Assembly: GCA_012960225.1 (NCBI GenBank)
Contig: DUBS01000003.1
Span: 12,145-76,144, forward strand
Reading direction: 5' to 3'
Length of the DNA: 64,000 nucleotides
Source of the DNA: Gemmatimonadota bacterium
GTDB lineage: Bacteria > Gemmatimonadota > Gemmatimonadetes > Longimicrobiales > Gaopeijiaceae
Below the pieces are notes generated by a model. It searched no databases. It was not told the DNA's origin and saw only the letters and a program-made list of their open reading frames with translations. Below are positions 9,685 to 45,687 of the stretch, piece after piece (position 1 is the stretch's first letter; every line of letters begins with the position of its first letter). Position numbers and translations under genes: made by a program.

Positions 9685-10542
9685 CTAGAGAACGTATCCA
9701 CCATCAACAGTGATGATCGCTCCGGTGATGTGCCGGGCTGCCTCGGAGCAAAGAAACAAAACCACACCCGCCACATCTTGCGGATCACCCAAACGGCCAA
9801 GAGCGGATCTCTCTCGAGCATGGTCTAGAATCTCAGGTGACACACCTTCGGTGAGTCGGGTCGTGCGCACATAACCAGGAGCGACAGCATTCACATTGAT
9901 GTTCTTTGGCCCCAGCTCAACCGCGCTACTGCGAGTTAGGCCGATGAGACCGGCCTTAGACGAAGAATAATTGGAGATACCGAACTCAGTACGCATTCCA
10001 TGCACCGATGTGATGTTGACAATCTTCCCATATTCTTGGGCACGCATTGAGGGGGCTACAGCCCTCGTGAAGTGAAAGGCGCCGTCCAAGTTAGTTCGGA
10101 GCACAGCTTCCCAGTCATGATCAGTCATAAGCCAGATCGGTGCATCACGTCCGATCCCAGCGTTGTTCACCAAGACATCAATGCTCCCAAGTTCCTCCTC
10201 TGTCTCGGACACGAAAGAATTGACGTCACTTGATTCCCTTACATCGCAAGAGCAGGAAAGCACTTGCACTTTCATCTGTCGTAACTCACTCGCTACCTCT
10301 TTAGCTTCGCTACGAGATTGACCTCCGTCATCCAGATAACAAAACGCAATATGAGCGCCACAACGCGCGAGTTCCAAGGCAACCGCACGGCCAATCCCAC
10401 TCGATCCACCTGACACGATTGCAACTTTCCCGCTCAGGTTCTCGACCTGCAGGACAGGCTGGGGTTGGGGTTCTGCCGTGACCTCATCGAGGAGTGCCTC
10501 GACGGCGTTGGTGGCCGTCTCCGAGAGTGGAGAATCCGACAT
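9685..10542 (-). CDS. SDR family oxidoreductase
   Basis: VSGGSSGIGRAVA, NNAG and YSSSK motifs, with a 35-aa N-terminal extension. Confidence 0.85.
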   Translation of the reverse strand: MSDSPLSETATNAVEALLDEVTAEPQPQPVLQVENLSGKVAIVSGGSSGIGRAVALELARCGAHIAFCYLDDGGQSRSEAKEVASELRQMKVQVLSCSCDVRESSDVNSFVSETEEELGSIDVLVNNAGIGRDAPIWLMTDHDWEAVLRTNLDGAFHFTRAVAPSMRAQEYGKIVNITSVHGMRTEFGISNYSSSKAGLIGLTRSSAVELGPKNINVNAVAPGYVRTTRLTEGVSPEILDHARERSALGRLGDPQDVAGVVLFLCSEAARHITGAIITVDGGYVL

Positions 10543-13164: not shown

Positions 13165-14090
13165 GTTCTCCTCGCCCCCTTAACCACGAAGTCTGCTGTA
13201 AGGTTGATGATAAACGTCACCACAAAAAGCAAGATTCCTAAAGTAAAAAGGGCTCGGTAATGGTCCGAGCCAACCGGAGCATCACCGAGTTCTGCTGCAA
13301 TTGTTGCAGTGATTGCGCGCACTGAATCAAATGGGCTCGTCGGGATCTGGATCGCGTTCCCGCTTGCCATGAGCACCGCCATTGTCTCGCCAAAAGCCCG
13401 ACCTACTCCAAGAAGAACCGCCGCGACAAGACCATTCCTGCCTGCCGGAAGTACAACTCTGAAAATCACCTGCCACTTTGTGGCACCCATGGCTTCAGCT
13501 GCCTCACGGTAGGTATCCGGAACCGCCTTGAGTGCATCTTCAGCAATCGTTGTCATGATCGGGGCAGCCATTAGCCCGAGGATAATACCTGAGTTGAGGA
13601 CTCCGATTCCGACCGGGACGTCAAACATGTCAATAATCAGGGGGTTCATGATCGATAGGCCGATGAAGCCCCATACAACCGACGGGATAGCAGCCAAGAG
13701 TTCAACCAACACCTTAAGGGACTCTCGGAGTCTGCCTGTGGCGAACTCACCGATGAAGATGGCCGCACCAAGTGAGAATGGCACCGAGACCAGCATGGCA
13801 AGACCCGTTACGCTAGCGGTTCCTGCTATAAGCCCGAGAACCCCGTACCTAGGATTCTGAGGGGATGTTGGCCGCCAGGTTATGCTTCCAAGAAACTCCC
13901 GGACATTCAATGGCCCCGCTATGAAACCCACACCCTCTTTGGTGATGAAGACAAAGATCCCGATGATGAAGATGATCGCGGAAATCCCACCCACAAACAC
14001 CAAGAACGTTACCGCTTTATCGACGTACCAATCTCTCCCACGGTGATCAAAGTCCATTGGTGCAGAGGGTTTGACTCGCTTAGTGAGCAT
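13161..14090 (-). CDS. pstC: phosphate ABC transporter permease PstC
   Basis: Permease with an EAA loop (EDALKAVPDTYREAAEAMGATKWQV). It overlaps pstA by 4 nt. Confidence 0.9.
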   Translation of the reverse strand: MLTKRVKPSAPMDFDHRGRDWYVDKAVTFLVFVGGISAIIFIIGIFVFITKEGVGFIAGPLNVREFLGSITWRPTSPQNPRYGVLGLIAGTASVTGLAMLVSVPFSLGAAIFIGEFATGRLRESLKVLVELLAAIPSVVWGFIGLSIMNPLIIDMFDVPVGIGVLNSGIILGLMAAPIMTTIAEDALKAVPDTYREAAEAMGATKWQVIFRVVLPAGRNGLVAAVLLGVGRAFGETMAVLMASGNAIQIPTSPFDSVRAITATIAAELGDAPVGSDHYRALFTLGILLFVVTFIINLTADFVVKGARRT

Positions 14091-15162
14091 CCGGCCCTGC
14101 CAGGGTCTTCATGAGATCCTGAACCCGCACTGCGACCATCTTATACAGGTCTTCCAGCACATCCTTAGAGAACCCTTTCGGGATATCGATTGACCACTCT
14201 AGGACAATCGTTCGGAATGGAACTTCAGCTATATCCTCCAGCACACCGTCTTCGAGAGCGACGATGACATGATAGGGTTGGGCAGGTTCTCCCAAGCCTT
14301 CAATAGGGGACGGTCTCTTATGACTAACATCCATCCCCTGCTCATCCATGAACTCGATCAGGACTGGGTCAAGCGCTCCAGCAGGGCTGACCCCGACACT
14401 CGAATATCTGCCGCTCTCAGGGAAAGCTTTTTCAGCATAAGCTTCTGCCATTTGACTTGCCCGATTGTTCTCCTCACCCACAAACAAAATCCTGAAGATA
14501 CGTGGGTCGCGTTCTCCTCCTGTGATCGCGAAGATCGCCTGCTCACTGATGTTATCCGCCTGCTCAGCAACCCGCTTGAGCAGGTTGTTGATCCTAACCA
14601 ACGCAAAGCTGTCCTGTAGCGGGACCACCCGGTCATTTGCTAATTCCACTAGGTGGTCCAGCACTGTTTTTAACGTCACATCTACAGGGCGAACCAACCC
14701 CTCGTGCGTTTGCAGCGCACGTTCAACATCCTCTTCAAAGAAGGCGGTTAGTGCTTCGCCCAGTGCATGGCCTGCCTGCTGAGCGATGACTTCAACATCA
14801 CGCGTGACACTTTCAGGGGGACGTACCGTCAATCGTAAAACTTCTCTTCCGATCGTGCCGGCATAGTCACCGATCCGTTCCAGCGCCACGTTAAGTCGGA
14901 GAACTGCTGAGGCGAAACGAAGGTGTCCCGCACTCGGCGCATGTCGGATGATGAAGGCATGACACAGGTAGTTGATCTCCTTGATCCGCCGATTTACCTG
15001 ACGGTCTCCTAGGATCACATTGTTCGCGAGATCCTTGTCCCATCCAATAAGCGACTGGACGGTGTCTTTCACCTGATTTTCGACGAGTCCGGCTACCTTG
15101 CGCAGCTTTCTCCGAATCTCATTGAGATCCGCCTGCATTCTCTGCTCATATTGAGGTGTCAT
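14080..15162 (-). CDS. phoU: PhoU fused to a C-terminal cysteine-less ArsC/LMW-PTP-like domain
   Basis: Residues ~1-215 are a two-repeat PhoU (ERIGDYA and RVAEQADNISEQA). Residues ~222-355 align to thioredoxin-type ArsC/LMW-PTP (ILFVGEENNRASQMAEAY versus [18 protein letters not shown] from memory), but no catalytic Cys is present. Confidence 0.8.
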   Translation of the reverse strand: MTPQYEQRMQADLNEIRRKLRKVAGLVENQVKDTVQSLIGWDKDLANNVILGDRQVNRRIKEINYLCHAFIIRHAPSAGHLRFASAVLRLNVALERIGDYAGTIGREVLRLTVRPPESVTRDVEVIAQQAGHALGEALTAFFEEDVERALQTHEGLVRPVDVTLKTVLDHLVELANDRVVPLQDSFALVRINNLLKRVAEQADNISEQAIFAITGGERDPRIFRILFVGEENNRASQMAEAYAEKAFPESGRYSSVGVSPAGALDPVLIEFMDEQGMDVSHKRPSPIEGLGEPAQPYHVIVALEDGVLEDIAEVPFRTIVLEWSIDIPKGFSKDVLEDLYKMVAVRVQDLMKTLAGPDAH

Positions 15163-17540: not shown

Positions 17541-19268
17541 CTATTCCGTCGGCACGGTAAATCGAACTGTTGTTCCCTGACCGAGTTGACTCTCCGCGAC
17601 AACCTCTCCGCCCATTTCCGATACTAGGTGGCGAACAATCGCTAACCCGAGGCCCGTTCCTCCAAAGTCTCTGGCTCTAGCAGAATCAGCTCGATAGAAA
17701 CGCTCAAAAATTCGTGGCAATGACTCAGCAGGAATTCCGTCACCGTCATCTGAGATCACCACCTCAACCATAGAATCTTGGGTCAGGGCCATAGAAACAT
17801 TGATTGAGCCCCCGCTATCGGTATGCCGAATAGAATTCTCGAGCAAGTTTCTAAAGATGTGAAATAGCCCCTCGCGGTCACCCATGACCCTCAGGTTACC
17901 GCGGATATCGAAGGAAATTCCTTCCTTGCCTTCGATGTCTCTTACCACCTGCCATGCCTCTTGTGTTACCTCCTTCGTATCCACTGACTCTCGGCGCCCA
18001 GTCCATCCACCTGATTCCAGTTTAGATAGATCTAAGAGGTCCTCCACTAGGTGCTCTAGTCGGAGCGTGTTCTTACGAATCGAGGTAAGGAACTCCAATT
18101 TGAGCTTCTCTGGCGGGTCATCATCAAGCAGTGTTTCCGCATACCCTCGAATCGAGGTAAGAGGTGTCTTCAGTTCATGCGATGCGTTTGCTACAAAGTC
18201 ACGTCTTACTTGTTCAAGCCGGCGAATTTCACTGATGTCTAACAACGTTGTGACGGCACCCCCTGGATCTAAGGCACGAGATGAGACCAGTAAGTGTCTC
18301 CCATTGACCTCAACTTCATCTGAATTACCTGGCCTGATTACGGAATCCTCCAGGATAGAGCGCAGTTTGTTATCGCTGACCACGGAGTTGACTGGAGCAA
18401 GAACTGGTGTATCTAGTAACTCAAGGAGTGCACGAGCACTCCGATTCATACGGATTACCCTGGCATCCTCACTAAGCGCAATAACACCCTCAGCCATGCA
18501 ATCAATGAGTGTCTGCATTTCTTCACGCTCATGCCCAAGCTCGGTCAACCGAGACTGAAGTTCATCAGTGAGTAGATTGAACGCATCAGTAACATCTTGA
18601 AGCTCGGTGACCTTCGCATCCGGAACTCTCACCCTGTAATTCCCTTTACTGAACTGTCTCGCCCGTTGCGCCAAGAGTACCAGTGGCCTCGTTAGAGCGA
18701 TACTGATCATATAAGCCGCTGCAAGAGCAAAGAGCATGGCTAATAAACCAGTCAGAGCAACAGTCCTCTGCACTCCAGAGACTGTACGCTCTATACCTGT
18801 TTGTGGGGCAGCAATTCTCATAATAACCGAGGAGCCGTCGAGTATGATCAGTCTAGCTGCATAGAGAAGTGGCTCGGCAACAGTCTCGCTCGTGCGTTCC
18901 GCAAAACTCACGGTCTCACCACCAACTAACACGCCCTGAACCTCAGGGCGGTCGTAGTGATTCTCAACCTCAGGCAGTCGCGCTAGTTCTACGTGAGAAT
19001 CACCGAGTACACGGCCATCAGGATCAATGAAGGTGACTCTGTAGCCAATGCGATCCGTGATCTCTCCTGCAACCGAATCCAGGTCGACTAATTCAGCTTC
19101 CTGAACGACCCATTCACCTAGGGCGAGCTGCCGCTCCAAATCCGCCCGAACCGTCAATCCAAGTTCCCTTCTGAGGCCACTGCTTACTAATAGCACAATC
19201 AGGACTAGAAGAAGCCCAATGACGCCTAAGAAAGCGGCAAAGAGAGGGTATTGGATCCTTATGCGCAT
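17541..19268 (-). CDS. phoR: sensor histidine kinase PhoR-like, with a roughly 140-aa extracytoplasmic domain
   Basis: TM1, periplasmic segment, TM2, HAMP, PAS, HisKA (SHELKTPLTSIRGY) and HATPase (N, G1, G2 boxes). Confidence 0.85.
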   Translation of the reverse strand: MRIRIQYPLFAAFLGVIGLLLVLIVLLVSSGLRRELGLTVRADLERQLALGEWVVQEAELVDLDSVAGEITDRIGYRVTFIDPDGRVLGDSHVELARLPEVENHYDRPEVQGVLVGGETVSFAERTSETVAEPLLYAARLIILDGSSVIMRIAAPQTGIERTVSGVQRTVALTGLLAMLFALAAAYMISIALTRPLVLLAQRARQFSKGNYRVRVPDAKVTELQDVTDAFNLLTDELQSRLTELGHEREEMQTLIDCMAEGVIALSEDARVIRMNRSARALLELLDTPVLAPVNSVVSDNKLRSILEDSVIRPGNSDEVEVNGRHLLVSSRALDPGGAVTTLLDISEIRRLEQVRRDFVANASHELKTPLTSIRGYAETLLDDDPPEKLKLEFLTSIRKNTLRLEHLVEDLLDLSKLESGGWTGRRESVDTKEVTQEAWQVVRDIEGKEGISFDIRGNLRVMGDREGLFHIFRNLLENSIRHTDSGGSINVSMALTQDSMVEVVISDDGDGIPAESLPRIFERFYRADSARARDFGGTGLGLAIVRHLVSEMGGEVVAESQLGQGTTVRFTVPTE

Positions 19269-21421: not shown

Positions 21422-21693
21422 GAACGTCGAAATTCGAATGTGGCTTACTATTGTACAATCTAAAGATACCCACCTTTTCCGGAGAGGTCACACAATCGTT
21501 CCCATCCTCGGAGATTTCATCGTGTCCCGAGTAGCCAGGACAGTGGTTAAAGCCACACTATAGATAGGTTCAACTGAACATTCTCTTATAATCTTAAACC
21601 CATGTCCCACTTCTGATGTGACAGAATGACCGACCCCAGAACACCGACCTCGTATGGCGACACTGAAGCTCTGCAGTCGGATTTCCTCGTTCG

Positions 21694-32005: not shown

Positions 32006-32113
32006 TCTTTCAAGCTCAGCAATATATCGATCACCTCCTCAGCCCGTTGTCTAGGGCCTTGATAGAAGAAGCTCTTGGGCAAAACTCGAAGCTTCGAGCT
32101 ACCTATGTGGCGC

Positions 32114-33468
32114 TTACTCTTCCGGCAAGCCTGGCTCTGTCATACCCCGGACATCTAAGGCCTCGTTCACCTTGTCCTCAGAGAGCAACCCTTTAGAGAG
32201 TACTATGTCTCTGACACTCAATCCACGATCTGTTGCATCCTTTGCGACCAGTGCCGCTTGGTCATATCCGATATAAGGATTGAGCGCTGTCGCAATCGCA
32301 GGATTTTTTTCAAGTAACTCCTGAGCCCGCTCGGGATTTGCCTCGAAATATTTGCTATCAGTGTGATAGATTCGAGGAGAGACTGGGCTAGTACAGGCAT
32401 CATCACATTTAACTCGAAGTTTCCTCGACTCCCGGCAATCGTGATGGTGGTGTGATTTCCCATCACTCTGGCACACACCATCATCATCGCCTCGGACATT
32501 ACAGGATTAACCTTACCGGGCATGATCGAAGAACCAGGCTGTATTGCAGGCAACCGTAACTCTTGGATGCCAGATGTCGGTCCTGATCCAAGCCAACGGA
32601 TGTCATCAGCTATCTTCATAAGGCTGGTGGCAACTGTATTGAGCGCACCGGATACACTGACGGCCGCATCCTTCGAACCCTGTGCTTCGAAATGATCCTC
32701 AGCTTCGCGAAATGCAATCCCCGTAGTCTCTGCGATCCGGGCAATCACCTTTTCCGCAAAATCAACATGAGTATTGATGCCTGTTCCAGTCGCAGTGCCA
32801 CCCAGTGCGAGCTCTTCTAGTTCTGCCGAAGCAGATCGGACCCTATCAATGCCTTTGGTGACCTGAGCTGCATATCCGCTGAACTCTTGGCCAAGTCTTA
32901 CCGGCGTCGCGTCCATCAAATGGGTACGGCCTGACTTTATGATTTCATCGAATATGTTTGCTTTTTCGGTGAGCGTTGTACTTAGATGCCCAAGCGCCGG
33001 CAGGAGTTCCTCTTCAATTGATACCCTTGCGGACATATGGATTGCCGTTGGAATGACATCGTTCGAAGATTGGCCAAAGTTCACGTGGTCATTGGGATGT
33101 ACCTTCTCTCCGTGAAGCTCGGATGCTCGGTAAGCCACGACCTCATTCATATTCATGTTTGTAGAGGTGCCAGAACCAGTTTGGTAGATATCAACGATGA
33201 ACTGGTCATCCCACTTACCCTCTACAACTTCGGTTGCTGCCTTCGCTACCGCCTCGGCGATCTTCTCATCTAAGACTCCGAGCTCGGCATTAACTTCGGC
33301 AGCTGACTTCTTGATGAGACCCAGGGCTTCAATGAAGCGTCGGCCGAAAAGCTGACCACTAATTGGAAAGTTCTCGACAGCTCTTTGAGTTTGGGCACCG
33401 TAGAGAGCGTTCTCGGGAACCTTCATCTCGCCGAGAGAGTCCTTTTCAATGCGGTATCCGTCAGGCAT
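32114..33468 (-). pseudogene. fumC: class II fumarate hydratase, disrupted by a frameshift and short deletion near 32340-32360
   Basis: The 32218..33468 frame carries FumC through [11 protein letters not shown] ... [24 protein letters not shown], then turns to nonsense. The 32114..32476 frame carries the FumC C-terminus ([28 protein letters not shown]...). The 1355-nt span is not a multiple of 3. Confidence 0.75.
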
Positions 33469-35168: not shown

Positions 35169-36164
35169 TTAAGGTTCCTCGTGTCCCTTAGCTCCACCGT
35201 GGGCCAACCAACGCTCAGCCTCTAGTGCTGCCATACAACCTGTCCCCGCAGCCGTAACAGCCTGACGGAAGTAGTCGTCCATCACGTCCCCAGCAGCAAA
35301 GATACCAGGCACAGATGTCTCAGTTCGCCATGCTGTGGGTGTCTGGACGTAGCCGTTTTCCTTGAGTTCTATAACTCCATTCAGGAATCCAGTATTGGGT
35401 GTGTGACCGATCGCAACAAACATCCCTCTCACTTCAAGCTCACTCACTTCACCACTCACAGTATCCTGCAGCCTAAGAGCAGTAATAGTCTCATTTCCAA
35501 TAACCTCCGTCACCAACTTGTTCCACTCGACGCGGATCTTATCATGAGCTAGAGCCCGCTCAGACATGATTCTTGAGGCTCGAAATTTATCTCTCCTGTG
35601 AATGACAATGACTTGCTCTGCGAACTTGGTTAGGTAAAGTGCGTCCTCCATAGCCGAGTCCCCTCCACCTATTACAGCAAGAGTATCCCCTCGGAAATGA
35701 GGGAGTGCCCCATCACAGACTGCGCATGCACTTACACCTCCACCCGACTGTGCAAGTCGTTCTTCATTCTCTAGACCTAGCCATTTCGCATTTGCACCCG
35801 TAGCTAAGATCACGGAATCCGCAAGCACTTCTGTATCTGTATTTGAGCGCAGCCTGAAGGGATATTGACCAGGGTCAATATCAACGATGTCCTCCCAGAT
35901 AGAACGGGTGCCGAAGCTGAGGGCCTGCTCCCGCATCTCTACCATCAAGTCCGGGCCCATTACTCCCGCCCTAAAGCCCGGGTAATTTTCTACTTCTGTC
36001 GTAAACATGAGCTGGCCACCGGGAATCATTGTCCGACTTCCGGCTCCTTCGAAAACAAACGGCTTCATCTGAGCTCTGGCGGCATAGATCGCCGCTGTCC
36101 AAGCAGCAGGCCCGGACCCAATAATGACGACAGTCTCTCGCTCTCTGATTTCCTGGTTACTCAT
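35169..36164 (-). CDS. trxB: thioredoxin-disulfide reductase
   Basis: GSGPA FAD motif, redox-active CAVCDG, GGGDSA NADPH motif and GIFAAGD. Confidence 0.9.
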
Positions 36165-36252
36165 GTTGCCTTGCTCCCTAACGTCTTCCTGGCAGAGTGC
36201 GGATCTTTACTAGCACCAGAAGGCATATCACTTCTCCAACAGATCTGGAACC

Positions 36253-37257
36253 CTATTTGTTGAACACCTTCATGTTAGTCGAATGCCCAGGGTTCATCCG
36301 GGCACTTGGATCGACATAGTGCACTGCATGATTCACTGCGATCGCAGCTTCAGAGAAGCCACTGGCGATCAAATCTAGCTTTCCTTCGTAACTAACGATG
36401 TCACCTGCCGCATATATCCCCTCGATATTCGTGCGCATCAATTGATCTACTGTGATGCGATTCTTGGTAACCTCAACTCCCCACTTCTTGACCGGTCCGA
36501 GGTTTGGCTTGAAGCCCAGACACGACAATAGAATATCACACCCAAGACTCAACTCTTCAGCTGTTCGGTTTTCGTAGATTGTCAACTTCTCAACGCGACT
36601 CTCACCCAGAATTTCCCGCACCTCATGAAAGGTGTGGAGTTTGACCTCACCTAATGCAACGGCCTCTTGCATACGCTGCACTGTCACTTCATGCGCTCGC
36701 CACCCATCTCGACGATGGACAAGGGTCATCGATGCGACAACATCCTTTAACATCAAAACAAAGTCGAGTGCAGAGTCACCACCTCCAACCACAACGACCT
36801 GTTTACCGCGGAATGCCTCAGGATCTTTCGCAGAATACTCTATGCCCCGGTGCATCATCTCTTCATAGCCCGGACACCGCAGTGGCATGGGCTCAAACGC
36901 CCCCTTCCCTCCTGCGATCACGATAATCTTGGTCAGATGAACACCGCCACCACAATGCAATGCAAAGTGTCCCTTAACCCACTGTACGTCCTCAACTTGT
37001 TCGTCAAGCACGATATCTGGCTTAAACTGCATTGCCTGATCAATCAGGCTCACTGCTAGATCTTTTGCGAGGACTTTCGGGAAGCCACCTACGTCAAAGA
37101 TATACTTCTCTGGATATAGCGCGGTGAGCTGTCCTCCGAGTTCAGGAAGAGAGTCAATAATCCTGCATGACATATTTCTCATGCCTGCATAGAAGGCGGC
37201 AAAGAGGCCGGTCGGCCCGCCACCTATGACAGTGATGTCGCGTATTTCATCAGCCAT
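36253..37257 (-). CDS. thioredoxin-reductase-like ferredoxin-NADP+ reductase (YumC type)
   Basis: VIGGGPTGLFAAFY, ELGGQL..LYPEKYI.DV.GFP and GGGDSALD motifs with no CxxC. This matches Bacillus YumC and Chlorobium FNR as I remember them. Confidence 0.8.
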   Translation of the reverse strand: MADEIRDITVIGGGPTGLFAAFYAGMRNMSCRIIDSLPELGGQLTALYPEKYIFDVGGFPKVLAKDLAVSLIDQAMQFKPDIVLDEQVEDVQWVKGHFALHCGGGVHLTKIIVIAGGKGAFEPMPLRCPGYEEMMHRGIEYSAKDPEAFRGKQVVVVGGGDSALDFVLMLKDVVASMTLVHRRDGWRAHEVTVQRMQEAVALGEVKLHTFHEVREILGESRVEKLTIYENRTAEELSLGCDILLSCLGFKPNLGPVKKWGVEVTKNRITVDQLMRTNIEGIYAAGDIVSYEGKLDLIASGFSEAAIAVNHAVHYVDPSARMNPGHSTNMKVFNK

Positions 37258-38254: not shown

Positions 38255-38384
38255 TTGGATTACAAAAACACATCAGAATAAACGTTCCTGGATGCATGAC
38301 AACAAGTTGAGTTCCGCAAATGCAGCCCGGCCCCAAGAAGTAATCATGTATAGGAAGAGTCGAAACGAGACCTTCGGATTAGGG

Positions 38385-40501: not shown

Positions 40502-42340
40502 TCACACATCTTCCACAAGATAAGCAACTCCCCAAGCTCCTATACCGAGGTGTGTCGCTATCACTGGTGTCGCGGGAGCTGCGAGAACCTCGACTCTATT
40601 CCCATACCGTCCCCTGAGTTCATCTGTGATTGGCTGGACGATTTCGGGCATCCCGACATGAAAGATCCCAAAACGCATACGTTCTGTACCATCAGGAATG
40701 CGCTCACCGACAAGTTTCATTAATTGACTTCGGGCCCGAGTCACACCGATAGCCTTCCCTGCAGAAGTAACATGCCCGCATTTGTCGATTTCTAGCACAG
40801 GCTTAATTCCTAGGAGCCTCGAGAGAAACGCCTGGCCCGATCCAACGCGTCCAGATGCGACAAGTCTCTTTAACGTCTGCACGGTAAACAAAATCCCGGA
40901 TTGGGTACGAACCCTTGTGATCTCCCTAACTATCTCCTCCGGTTGCCACCCCAGCTCGGCCAGTTCACAGGCCTTCACGACTAGCAAGCCCTGAAGAACC
41001 GATGCACTGAGCGAATCGGCCATATAGATATTGGTCCCCTGAAATCCTGATGCTGCAGCCTCACCTGCCGCGAAGGTCCCTGACAACGTGGACGCCGCGA
41101 GTACTGCTACTACAGCTTCCCCTTCTTCTGCCGCGCGGGAGTAAGTCTTTGTGATGTCAGCTCGGCTGGGCTGACTAGTCGTTGGTAATTCAGAATCATC
41201 TTCAAGTTTCTTATGAAATTCCTCAGTGGCAATGTCAATTCCAGCTCGATAAGACCGATCCCCGTCGATCAATAAGAGAGGTATTACATGTATCCCATGC
41301 GCGCGAAGGATATCCTCAGACAGATCAGCTGCTGAATCCGTTACAACTGAGACGGGCCGACGGGCAAGCTGAATGTGACCTTCCGCCGCACGTTGAAGAG
41401 TACGGTGCTGTGCACGCATGTCCTCAGCTTTGTGTGTAACCAAATCGCCCAAGCCTCTGAGGTAGTCGAAAACCTGCTCAGGATCATCGGTGTGGATATG
41501 AATTTTCAGCACATGGTCCGAACGGATCACAATCATAGAGTCACCCGCAGCTCGGAGCCTACTCTGTACACTGGTTTGTGTGGGGAGCGAGTCACTGTGT
41601 ACTAGCGCCTCGGTGCAAAAACGAAATTGTTCCTGATTCACCGGATATTCCATGAGAGACGCAGGAGGGGCTAAGGCCTTCTCATGCACTTGAGATTCAA
41701 TAGAGATGGGTAGTGACCCATCCACCAAGTAAAGAACTCCTTCTAGTAAGCTCACGAAGCCCTTAGCCCCTGCATCAACCACCCCAGCTGTTTTGAGGAC
41801 AGGCAGAAGATCAGGCGTTCTCTCAAGCGAATCTCGAGCCTCATTAACGAGATGCTGCAGCAAGGCCACAAAATCCTTTGCGGCACTCTGGGTAGCAGCT
41901 AAAGCGGTATCGTGGACAACTGTGAGAATCGTACCCTCGACAGGCTTATCTAGTGCTTCTCGCAGGCTTTGGGCACCCCGACGGAAAGCACAGCAGAACT
42001 CAGCTGTGTTGACACGGTCATAACCGGATAAGCCATCCGCAAAGCCAAGTAGGAAATGAGATAGCATCATCCCACAGTTACCTCTGGCACCCATAACAGC
42101 TGCATCAGCTGCCCCTCGTGCGACCTCGGCAACCGACGTGGCTCGACTGGGTTCCATGGTGTCCGCAATCGCCCGAACTGTCAAAGTGAGGTTCGTTCCA
42201 GTATCCCCGTCAGGAACCGGGAATACATTGATCCGATTCAACTCATCTCGTTGTTGCTGAGCATAATTGCATGCCGCAAGGAGTGAGCGGCGCAGCCGCG
42301 AGCCATCAAGGTAGTGAATCTGCATCGTCGATCCCGTCAT
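40502..42340 (-). CDS. fusion of a FakA-like Dak2 kinase module with a DegV (FakB-like) fatty-acid-binding domain
   Basis: Residues ~1-200 are a Dak2 domain (VFPVPDGDTGTN ... GARGNCG). Residues ~235-310 resemble the YloV/FakA middle domain (FCTE ... GDSMIVI ... KIHIHTDDP). Residues ~329-612 are DegV (VVTDSAADL ... TTSQPS ... STLSGTF). Confidence 0.8.
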   Translation of the reverse strand: MTGSTMQIHYLDGSRLRRSLLAACNYAQQQRDELNRINVFPVPDGDTGTNLTLTVRAIADTMEPSRATSVAEVARGAADAAVMGARGNCGMMLSHFLLGFADGLSGYDRVNTAEFCCAFRRGAQSLREALDKPVEGTILTVVHDTALAATQSAAKDFVALLQHLVNEARDSLERTPDLLPVLKTAGVVDAGAKGFVSLLEGVLYLVDGSLPISIESQVHEKALAPPASLMEYPVNQEQFRFCTEALVHSDSLPTQTSVQSRLRAAGDSMIVIRSDHVLKIHIHTDDPEQVFDYLRGLGDLVTHKAEDMRAQHRTLQRAAEGHIQLARRPVSVVTDSAADLSEDILRAHGIHVIPLLLIDGDRSYRAGIDIATEEFHKKLEDDSELPTTSQPSRADITKTYSRAAEEGEAVVAVLAASTLSGTFAAGEAAASGFQGTNIYMADSLSASVLQGLLVVKACELAELGWQPEEIVREITRVRTQSGILFTVQTLKRLVASGRVGSGQAFLSRLLGIKPVLEIDKCGHVTSAGKAIGVTRARSQLMKLVGERIPDGTERMRFGIFHVGMPEIVQPITDELRGRYGNRVEVLAAPATPVIATHLGIGAWGVAYLVEDV

Positions 42341-43964: not shown

Positions 43965-44948
43965 TTATTCAAAATGTCCAGGGGCTGCCTTATGCATCTC
44001 AGACTGAACATCCTCTGCTTTGCGCATAGTCGAAAGATCTAATTCAAAATCTTCGACACTAGGATGACGAAGCTTGCCAAGGAACTCCTCAATTTCTCGT
44101 CCGGATAGCCCGTTTTTCTTGAGTTTTTCGGAAGAGACACTCATGCCTGGCCTGGCAGAGATACTGGATCCATCTGCATCTAGGAGCTCTGCTAGGACGC
44201 TGAGTTCAGCCCGGCTCATTCTTTGACCAAGCAGGTCATAATCAACCCACGCTTCGAACGACAATGGAGCAACACGCTTTACCATACCCGCGATAATGTT
44301 CGCAAAGACGCGGATCTCCCACTGCGCATGTGGATCTGCCCTGAGTGATAGAAAGTGCAGCAAGTTGTGCAGATCAATCTTCCAGTACCACTGTGTGTAG
44401 GTAGAGAGAGGCAAATCTATCCGAGCAATTTCCCTTGCAATGTCCTCACCAATCATCCAAGAATAGCCTTCACCGGCATCAGCTCGGATTCTCTCCCAAC
44501 GTTCTACCGCAGACTTATAAATCTCTGCTGAAGCAAGCTGCTCGCGTCCCTGCTTGTTCGACTGGCTCTGGAGAGCAAAATGCTCTTCATCCGGCATATA
44601 AAACAGCAACGGCATAAGGCTATAGCGTCCGCTGTATTCATTAATAGACGCACTCCTGTGACGCACCCATTGCCGCGCGATGAACATCGGCATTGCGCAA
44701 TGGAACTTGAACTCGACCATCTCACTTGGTGTGGTGTGGCGATGACGCCTGAGATAGCGGATCAATCCACGTGTAAGTGATGTCTTGCGTGTGCCCGCGC
44801 CATAACTTACTCGGGCCGCTCGCTCGACATCCTCATCGGTGCCCATGTAGTCCACCAAGGCCACGAAGCCATGGTCAAGCGCCGGGAAATAGCCCCCGAG
44901 AATTTCTTCGGCCGCCTCCACTGTAGGTCGTTTTGTTTTCAGACTCAT
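43965..44948 (-). CDS. thyX: FAD-dependent thymidylate synthase ThyX, with a roughly 85-aa C-terminal extension
   Basis: ThyX motif (RHRSASINEYSGRYS). At 327 aa it is longer than minimal ThyX proteins. Confidence 0.9.
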   Translation of the reverse strand: MSLKTKRPTVEAAEEILGGYFPALDHGFVALVDYMGTDEDVERAARVSYGAGTRKTSLTRGLIRYLRRHRHTTPSEMVEFKFHCAMPMFIARQWVRHRSASINEYSGRYSLMPLLFYMPDEEHFALQSQSNKQGREQLASAEIYKSAVERWERIRADAGEGYSWMIGEDIAREIARIDLPLSTYTQWYWKIDLHNLLHFLSLRADPHAQWEIRVFANIIAGMVKRVAPLSFEAWVDYDLLGQRMSRAELSVLAELLDADGSSISARPGMSVSSEKLKKNGLSGREIEEFLGKLRHPSVEDFELDLSTMRKAEDVQSEMHKAAPGHFE

Positions 44949-45093: not shown

Positions 45094-45687
45094 TCAGGGA
45101 TTCGATAGTCCCCATTCACCGATGTCTGACTCCGACTCAACCCCGAGAGCATCCGCAATCCGAGTGATGTAGTTGAAGTACCCTATGATCTGCGTTGCAT
45201 CATGGATCGCGCTGTCTTCGAAGCCATGAATACGTAAAGATTCGAGGTCACTTGGACCTATTTCTTGCTGATCTAGGGTGAGTTTTTCCGCGAACAGACA
45301 TAGTGCTCGATCTTTTTCAGACAGATCCGCAGAGCGCCAGTCCGTGGCGATGGCCTCTACAAACGCGTCTGCTTCATCTGCGGACTTGAACCTTTCCGTA
45401 ACCTCTTCCCGGAGGTCATGTGCGTGCGATTGCACTCAATAGAAACAGTCATTCGCCTTCGATGTGACTACGGCTAGCATCTCCCTCTGCACCCGCGACA
45501 GGGGAGACGGAGTAAACATCAATGCGCGATAAAGCCCCATGGAAGCTTCCATCACAGTCGGGTTAAGGCTCATCACATGGACGATATTCCATACGCGACC
45601 TGCTCGATCGATCGCATCGTCGAATTGCTTTTTGAGTAAGCCTTCAGCTTCTGATAAAGGGATCTGCTCTATATAGGGCATGCTCAT
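45094..45687 (-). CDS. AhpD/carboxymuconolactone-decarboxylase-family peroxidase-related protein; candidate selenoprotein (in-frame UGA at 45436-45438)
   Basis: ORFs 45436..45687 and 45094..45435 share a frame and are separated only by TGA. Read-through gives ...SKANDCFY-U-VQSHAHD..., i.e. C-x-x-U-x-x-x-H at the family CxxCxxxH site. The joined length is 197 aa. Confidence 0.7.
45399..45418 (-). promoter_or_regulatory. candidate bacterial SECIS hairpin
   Basis: mRNA 5'-UGACCUC CGGGAA GAGGUUA-3': a 7-bp stem (one G-U pair) with a G-rich 6-nt loop. The stem starts 17 nt after the UGA and the apical loop 24 nt after it. Confidence 0.45.

Follow-up and report, generated by a model that had tools for sequence, protein, structure and literature searches.

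The minus-strand interval 45094-45687 of the window, by which we mean the whole 64-kb stretch of DNA analyzed, very probably constitutes one gene coding for an AhpD-like selenoprotein (TIGR01926, COG2128), in which the in-frame UGA at codon 84 is predicted to be read as selenocysteine (Sec). The window contains an 83-aa ORF (45436..45687), which ends in ...SKANDCFY and is terminated by the TGA at 45436-45438, and directly 3' of it in the same frame a 113-aa ORF (45094..45435), which opens with a GTG and reads VQSHAHDL.... That TGA is the sole separator of the two, and the read-through product is a protein of 197 aa with the sequence C81-F-Y-[UGA84]-V-Q-S-H88 at its center of interest. The features of the locus are collected in Table 1; the alternative start codon listed there is a possibility because MPWI or MPYI opens most orthologs.

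Table 1. Features of the predicted selenoprotein gene, with positions in the window
Feature	Position	Strand	Remarks
Complete gene for a predicted AhpD-like (TIGR01926 'peroxidase-related enzyme') selenoprotein	45094..45687	-	197 codons plus terminal TGA 45094-45096
Start codon ATG	45685-45687	-	Alternative: ATG at 45679-45681, two codons further on
In-frame UGA, codon 84, predicted selenocysteine	45436..45438	-	Second-Cys position of the CxxC redox motif
Cys81 codon TGT	45445..45447	-	First residue of C-x-x-U; presumed resolving partner of Sec84
His88 codon CAC	45424..45426	-	H of CxxUxxxH
Glu69 codon GAG	45481..45483	-	Conserved Q-R-E-M-L-A segment, 12 residues before Cys81
SECIS-like hairpin within the coding region	45399..45418	-	7-bp stem UGACCUC/GAGGUUA, 6-nt loop CGGGAA

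Family membership and the catalytic column

Profile searches were run on the joined protein with the TGA written as Cys, and these place it in the 'peroxidase-related enzyme' family TIGR01926 (130.1 bits, cutoff 81.8), with residues 11-185 lying on profile positions 8-175 of 178. The AhpD core TIGR00778 (39 bits, cutoff 27.8) and the Pfam CMD domain PF02627 (38.5 bits, cutoff 23; residues 43-94, spanning the TGA) are also passed. Five proteins of known structure (PDB 6k40, 2oyo, 2pfx, 2prr and 3c1l), all of them 'uncharacterized peroxidase-related proteins', align over residues ~15-186 with E-values of 7e-27 to 4e-19, and in the alignments with 6k40, 2oyo and 2pfx their C-x-x-C-x-x-x-H falls on C-F-Y-[UGA]-V-Q-S-H. 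These homologs share the length range (188-197 aa), the redox motif and the RE[ML]LAVV helix with the product of the locus, but differ from it in being only ~30-40% identical and in having a Cys where it has the UGA; as Cys forms, they would have no need of a recoding hairpin. The UGA column is likewise Cys in the distant homologs P0016, P0022, P0062, P0073 and P0078 in the protein alignment, and Ser in more distant alphaproteobacterial homologs. Since the CMD, TIGR01926 and PDB alignments all cross the TGA, neither half-ORF is a complete domain. The first-pass annotation, made from the letters of the sequence alone, had proposed just this arrangement, i.e., two incomplete ORFs in one frame split only by the TGA, a UGA at the second Cys of CxxCxxxH and a fused product of normal family length, and the frame, the profile and structure alignments and the lengths of the structural homologs bear it out in each respect.

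The protein shares the AhpD core with Mycobacterium tuberculosis AhpD but is not a member of the canonical AhpD family TIGR00777 (19.4 bits vs a cutoff of 191.95); its residues 63-115 correspond to positions 112-166 of that profile, an offset of 49. This offset presumably maps E69, C81, U84 and H88 onto Glu118, Cys130, Cys133 and His137 of the M. tuberculosis enzyme, i.e., its proton-relay residues and CxxC, and Glu69, around which the RE[ML]LA segment is conserved among homologs in the alignments, may be the counterpart of the AhpD proton-relay Glu. A further difference from the M. tuberculosis system is that no ahpC gene adjoins the AhpD-like gene here, its neighbors being thyX and genes for a succinate-semialdehyde dehydrogenase, an acyl-CoA synthetase and a Na+/solute symporter. 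The family NF041238 'AhpD_rel_CFYUT', which figured in the Sargasso Sea study as 'hypothetical protein 1', resembles the protein in its AhpD-related domain and in having C-F-Y-U-T, as compared to C-F-Y-U-V here; however, it is a different family, with a score of 66.4 bits vs a cutoff of 175 and a match confined to positions 175-337, the C-terminal half, of its 357-position model. The gathering score of Sestrin/PA26 (PF04636) is missed (27.5 bits vs 29.4) and matches to sestrin-2 in the PDB are weak (E ~1e-4), all of which reflects only the distant relationship between AhpD and the sestrins.

The hairpin as a candidate SECIS element

The hairpin listed in Table 1 begins with its stem 17 nt and its loop 24 nt after the UGA, and its bases also encode (H)-D-L-R-E-E-V-(T). 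It is present in the minimum-free-energy fold. Taken singly, the sequence does not outdo its shuffled versions in fold energy (z = -0.37); hence, stability by itself proves nothing, and the support for the hairpin comes from comparative tests. The TGA and what follows it, 63 nt in all, were aligned without gaps, and in this alignment the two arms of the stem are columns 21-27 and columns 34-40 (equivalent to 45399-45418). Of the cells of the TGA-bearing forms, 92.5% are paired, vs 26-47% once the 3' arm is displaced by 1-3 columns and 45% for the original register in 19 Cys or Ser homologs. All six core pairs are present in 48 of the 61 orthologs, and compensatory changes are seen at three pairs, namely 21-40 (CG, UA, UG, GC), 24-37 (CG, UA, UG) and 25-36. 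The observed covariation score was reached by none of 500 shuffles, and RNAalifold independently yields the identical helix.

As the hairpin overlaps the conserved peptide D-L-R-x-E-V, a part of its sequence conservation lies at the level of the protein, and the synonymous sites were therefore tested. The Leu codon of the stem is CTC or CTT in 59/60 orthologs, as against 35% for the other Leu codons of the same genes; the Glu codon is GAG in 57/60 (background 49%), and the Val codon is GTC or GTT in 48/48 (background 52%), with the caveat that the binomial P values for these synonymous sites ignore phylogeny. The apical loop is conserved as CGKGNN and is thus G-rich. In the bacterial SECIS model of bSECISearch, the loop lies 16-37 nt from the UGA, a range within which we take the loop of this hairpin to fall. 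The element is comparable to the SECIS of the Escherichia coli fdhF type in being a coding-region stem-loop immediately 3' of the UGA with G residues in its apical loop; it differs in that its stem, of 7 bp, is short and lacks both the extended lower helix and the bulged U. A search of Rfam over the whole window at the gathering threshold, and at E <= 10 around the TGA, returned chance matches only, with no bacterial SECIS family matched. By these comparisons, the hairpin appears to behave as a SECIS, one to which SelB would presumably bind. The first-pass annotation had placed a hairpin at this very position and thought it a fit to a bacterial SECIS; the fold agrees as to its position, and its conservation, covariation and specificity to the TGA forms, among the Cys and Ser homologs compared, strengthen the latter proposal.

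In certain lineages, a different structure occupies this place. The Ca. Actinomarina orthologs (L054, L057 and L059-L062, at ~10244-10306) have a shifted 5-bp helix, UCUCC/GGAGA, with a GGUC tetraloop, and two orthologs from Terriglobia (L052, L053) have a hairpin of yet another build; thus, the shape of the SECIS seems to vary by lineage while the UGA stays. In most of the Actinomarina loci a tmRNA gene is found ~1.2 kb upstream of the AhpD-like gene.

Conservation of the UGA and alternative readings of the locus

A search of 5.8 billion proteins returned ~20 'full-length' relatives along with dozens of ~110-aa stubs starting M/V-Q-[AS]-H-A-H-D-L and N-terminal stubs ending ...C-F-Y or ...C-R-Y. 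The ortholog set was drawn from one scan of species-representative genomes and comprises 61 loci (L004-L064). TGA is found at the codon-84 column in 60 of these, usually as the sole in-frame stop, and the single Cys form, with TGC, is L064 from Phycisphaerales. The TGA-bearing orthologs reach down to ~40% identity and come from about eleven phyla: Gemmatimonadota, Chloroflexota, Planctomycetota, Latescibacterota, Acidobacteriota, Actinomycetota (Ca. Actinomarina), SAR324, Desulfobacterota, Verrucomicrobiota, Nitrospirota and Eiseniibacteriota. Judged from the alignment, such a recurrence of the same codon is far beyond chance. The columns of the other two motif residues are conserved as well: that of Cys81 is TGT or TGC in 61/61 orthologs, and that of His88, which aligns with the His of the PDB homologs, is His in every listed TGA-bearing ortholog. 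Comparison with six relatives of 85-95% identity gives dN/dS values of 0.06-0.27 on the N-terminal side of the TGA and 0.07-0.16 on the C-terminal side; both halves are under purifying selection. The expectations of the first reading that orthologs would have either UGA or Cys at this column, and that the downstream half would not have decayed, were accordingly realized, the Cys forms being L064 and the more distant relatives.

Two relatives have other codons at the Sec column. P0003 (L001:10001-10582, also L002 and L003) has a real TGG (Trp), which recurs on 10 contigs across assemblies made independently by ENA, JGI and Logan, while P0013 (L085:367-963) has a real GGA (Gly) on one contig. 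Both codons are one substitution from TGA, and the hairpin is intact in both (GACCUC-CGUGAA-GAGGUC in P0003 and GAUCUC-CGGGCC-GAGGUC in P0013), which suggests a recent loss of Sec or, alternatively, an inactive or repurposed protein. In L001, genes for an AhpC/Redoxin and for another CMD protein follow ~2-3 kb downstream. These are to be distinguished from P0001 (L084:276-905) and P0004 (L086:421-996), from short JGI contigs, wherein the TGA was read as Trp under an alternative code; as a result, databases hold false Trp residues at Sec sites beside the ~110-aa C-terminal stubs. To ascribe each W in the Sec column to the gene caller is thus right for P0001 and P0004, which have TGA, but wrong for P0003 with its TGG, and P0013 has a true GGA.

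Components of the Sec machinery were sought around the locus. No tRNA genes were found in the 64-kb window, no selA, selB or selD among its 30 large ORFs, none of these genes or tRNA-Sec in the ~8-10 kb on either side of the window, as covered by longer public contigs, and no tRNA-Sec in the flanks of 60 orthologous loci; the absence of these genes from the window had been stated at the outset, and the tRNA search and the large ORFs agree with it. A 'SelR' Pfam match was rejected as a part of this machinery, as it corresponds to MsrB. The literature searched for Sec use in Gemmatimonadota yielded nothing relevant. Yet a source genome devoid of the Sec machinery is unlikely because the conservation of the TGA and the hairpin is so broad.

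It is against this background that the other readings of the locus have to be weighed. The UGA might be read through with something other than Sec, be it by near-cognate Trp or Cys insertion, by suppression stimulated by the hairpin or by reassignment of TGA (code 4/25). Such a reading can draw on the fact that no Sec machinery was seen in the window and its flanks, on the natural TGG and GGA variants that keep the hairpin and on the 'W' proteins that the JGI gene caller made from TGA. However, of the 24 genes identified with confidence in the window, 10 end in TGA, the AhpD-like gene among them, and TGA is the commonest stop there; being an ordinary stop, it has not been reassigned. Moreover, the column is that of the catalytic Cys in homologs, a classic signature of Sec, the position and G-rich loop of the hairpin match the bacterial SECIS pattern, and the status of the family as one of selenoproteins is accepted (PMC1088965, PMC2398784, PMC13188914). 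We therefore regard non-Sec read-through as improbable. A related scenario would have the source Gemmatimonadales lineage lacking SelA, SelB, SelD and tRNA-Sec, with the hairpin driving a SelB-independent recoding of the UGA, e.g., by insertion of Cys or Trp. In a milder version, the gene and a short, nearly invariant 'portable' SECIS lodged in DLRxEV would spread horizontally across more than 10 phyla, and variants that combine TGG or GGA with an intact hairpin would mark lineages newly devoid of Sec decoding. Even when the two versions are taken together, we would give them but a slim chance.

Less still can be said for a pseudogene, in which the TGA arose by mutation of a codon for Cys (TGC/TGT) or Trp (TGG) and left the gene dead or truncated to 83 residues. 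A single substitution would suffice for this, public gene callers do give two fragments, and the Sec machinery is not seen in the window. But a dead gene hardly accounts for an identical TGA in nearly all of the orthologs from so many phyla, for a sequence after the TGA that has remained under constraint without frameshifts or further stops or for a covarying hairpin that goes with the TGA and is poorly paired in the Cys and Ser homologs; by this comparative evidence, the pseudogene reading is effectively refuted and very improbable indeed. That the TGA and the GTG directly after it (TGAGTG), as seen in the window and its closest relatives, mark two translationally coupled ORFs for two small proteins is scarcely credible, since ATG, GTG or TTG follows the TGA in just 10/61 orthologs (elsewhere it is ACG, ACC, ATA, ATT, ATC or CGA), so that translation of the C-terminal half cannot, as a rule, start on its own, and since the CMD (43-94), TIGR01926 (11-185) and PDB (15-186) alignments run across the TGA and the catalytic motif would be split between C81 and H88.

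A proposed mechanism

Under the preferred reading of the locus as a selenoprotein gene, the hairpin would act as a bacterial SECIS that recruits SelB with Sec-tRNA(Sec) while the UGA is in the ribosomal A site. Insertion of Sec at codon 84 would then give an active site of the form C81-x-x-U84-x-x-x-H88 with Glu69 upstream, in which Sec84 would replace the nucleophilic second Cys of the canonical AhpD CxxC. Given a Sec at the position of the nucleophilic Cys, the enzyme would cycle between a selenolate/thiol and a selenenylsulfide form, with Cys81 resolving the intermediate as the selenenylsulfide. The reduced enzyme may act on a peroxiredoxin-type partner or, alternatively, on hydroperoxides directly.

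Two tandem flavoproteins of the thioredoxin-reductase type are encoded at 35169-37257 (-), 8-10 kb from the AhpD-like gene. One of these (35169-36164, -), at a distance of ~9 kb, is a bona fide TrxB (TIGR01292, 364 bits, cutoff 343), while the other (36253-37257, -) is a divergent paralog (172 bits). They could be a source of reductant for the AhpD-like protein.

Other loci in the window

Elsewhere in the window there are 42 same-frame ORF pairs split by a TGA, none of them credible as further cases. An 'LF-U-C' candidate at 38273 (-) is made up of short, junk-like ORFs that lie between genes, upstream of rho; at 21488, two ORFs in one frame simply lie side by side ahead of an isopropylmalate-synthase-like gene; and the pair at 44778 (+) is antisense to thyX.

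A few other genes deserve mention in their own right. The ORF for a class II fumarate hydratase (32218-33468, -) matches only positions 1-404 of its 458-position profile, and the canonical fumarase C-terminus continues in another frame (region 32006-33468, -), pointing to a frameshift near 32300-32330, which would be either an error of the MAG assembly or the mark of a pseudogene. A 360-aa ORF (14080-15162, -) combines a PhoU domain (residues 7-215) with a C-terminal domain resembling arsenate reductases and low-molecular-weight phosphatases (residues 224-350), and adjoins apparent pst transporter genes and a PhoR-like kinase (17541-19268). Finally, a 612-aa fusion (40502-42340, -) joins a DAK2/FakA-like kinase with a DegV/FakB-like fatty-acid-binding domain.

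Relationship to known selenoproteins and implications

The AhpD-like selenoproteins came to light in the survey of the Sargasso Sea (Zhang, Fomenko & Gladyshev 2005), where 27 sequences of an 'AhpD-like protein' (COG2128, CxxU), with a predicted SECIS, were introduced as a novel family of selenoproteins (PMC1088965). In the GOS survey (Zhang & Gladyshev 2008), 'AhpD-like 1' ranked fourth in abundance among the selenoprotein families of prokaryotes, with 299 Sec sequences from 37 samples and 902 Cys homologs (PMC2398784). The table of a 2026 review has the entry 'AhpD-like protein, TIGR01926, CxxU' (PMC13188914), and the family serves as the worked example of BSepDB. Thus, the precedent in marine surveys that the first-pass annotation had invoked is a real one, and the locus is a member of a catalogued selenoprotein family. 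It shares with the published CxxU proteins the TIGR01926 assignment, Sec in place of the second Cys, marine provenance, an in-gene SECIS hairpin and the existence of Cys homologs; nothing substantive sets it apart, other than that the present copy comes from a Gemmatimonadales MAG and is annotated as two fragments. As a kind, it is therefore already known, having been recognized as a marine-metagenome family since 2005, and is ordinary apart from its mis-annotation.

This mis-annotation, which had been foreseen, is widespread. The nearest genomes are the marine Gemmatimonadales MAGs UBA1120 and UBA7889 (both 95%), and the exact 113-aa ORF is present on at least 19 public contigs (GCA_015659365.1, GCA_0299358xx-0299361xx), with separate gene calls of 83 aa and 113 aa at every public locus shown. 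The practical value of the finding accordingly lies in annotation, as the gene is split into meaningless fragments of 83 aa and 113 aa in the public MAG assemblies examined. In terms of science, it bears out existing knowledge and does not add to it, AhpD-like CxxU proteins being among the most abundant marine selenoproteins. Correctly annotated, the locus would add one selenoprotein to the marine Gemmatimonadales, implying that these bacteria decode Sec and have a need for selenium.
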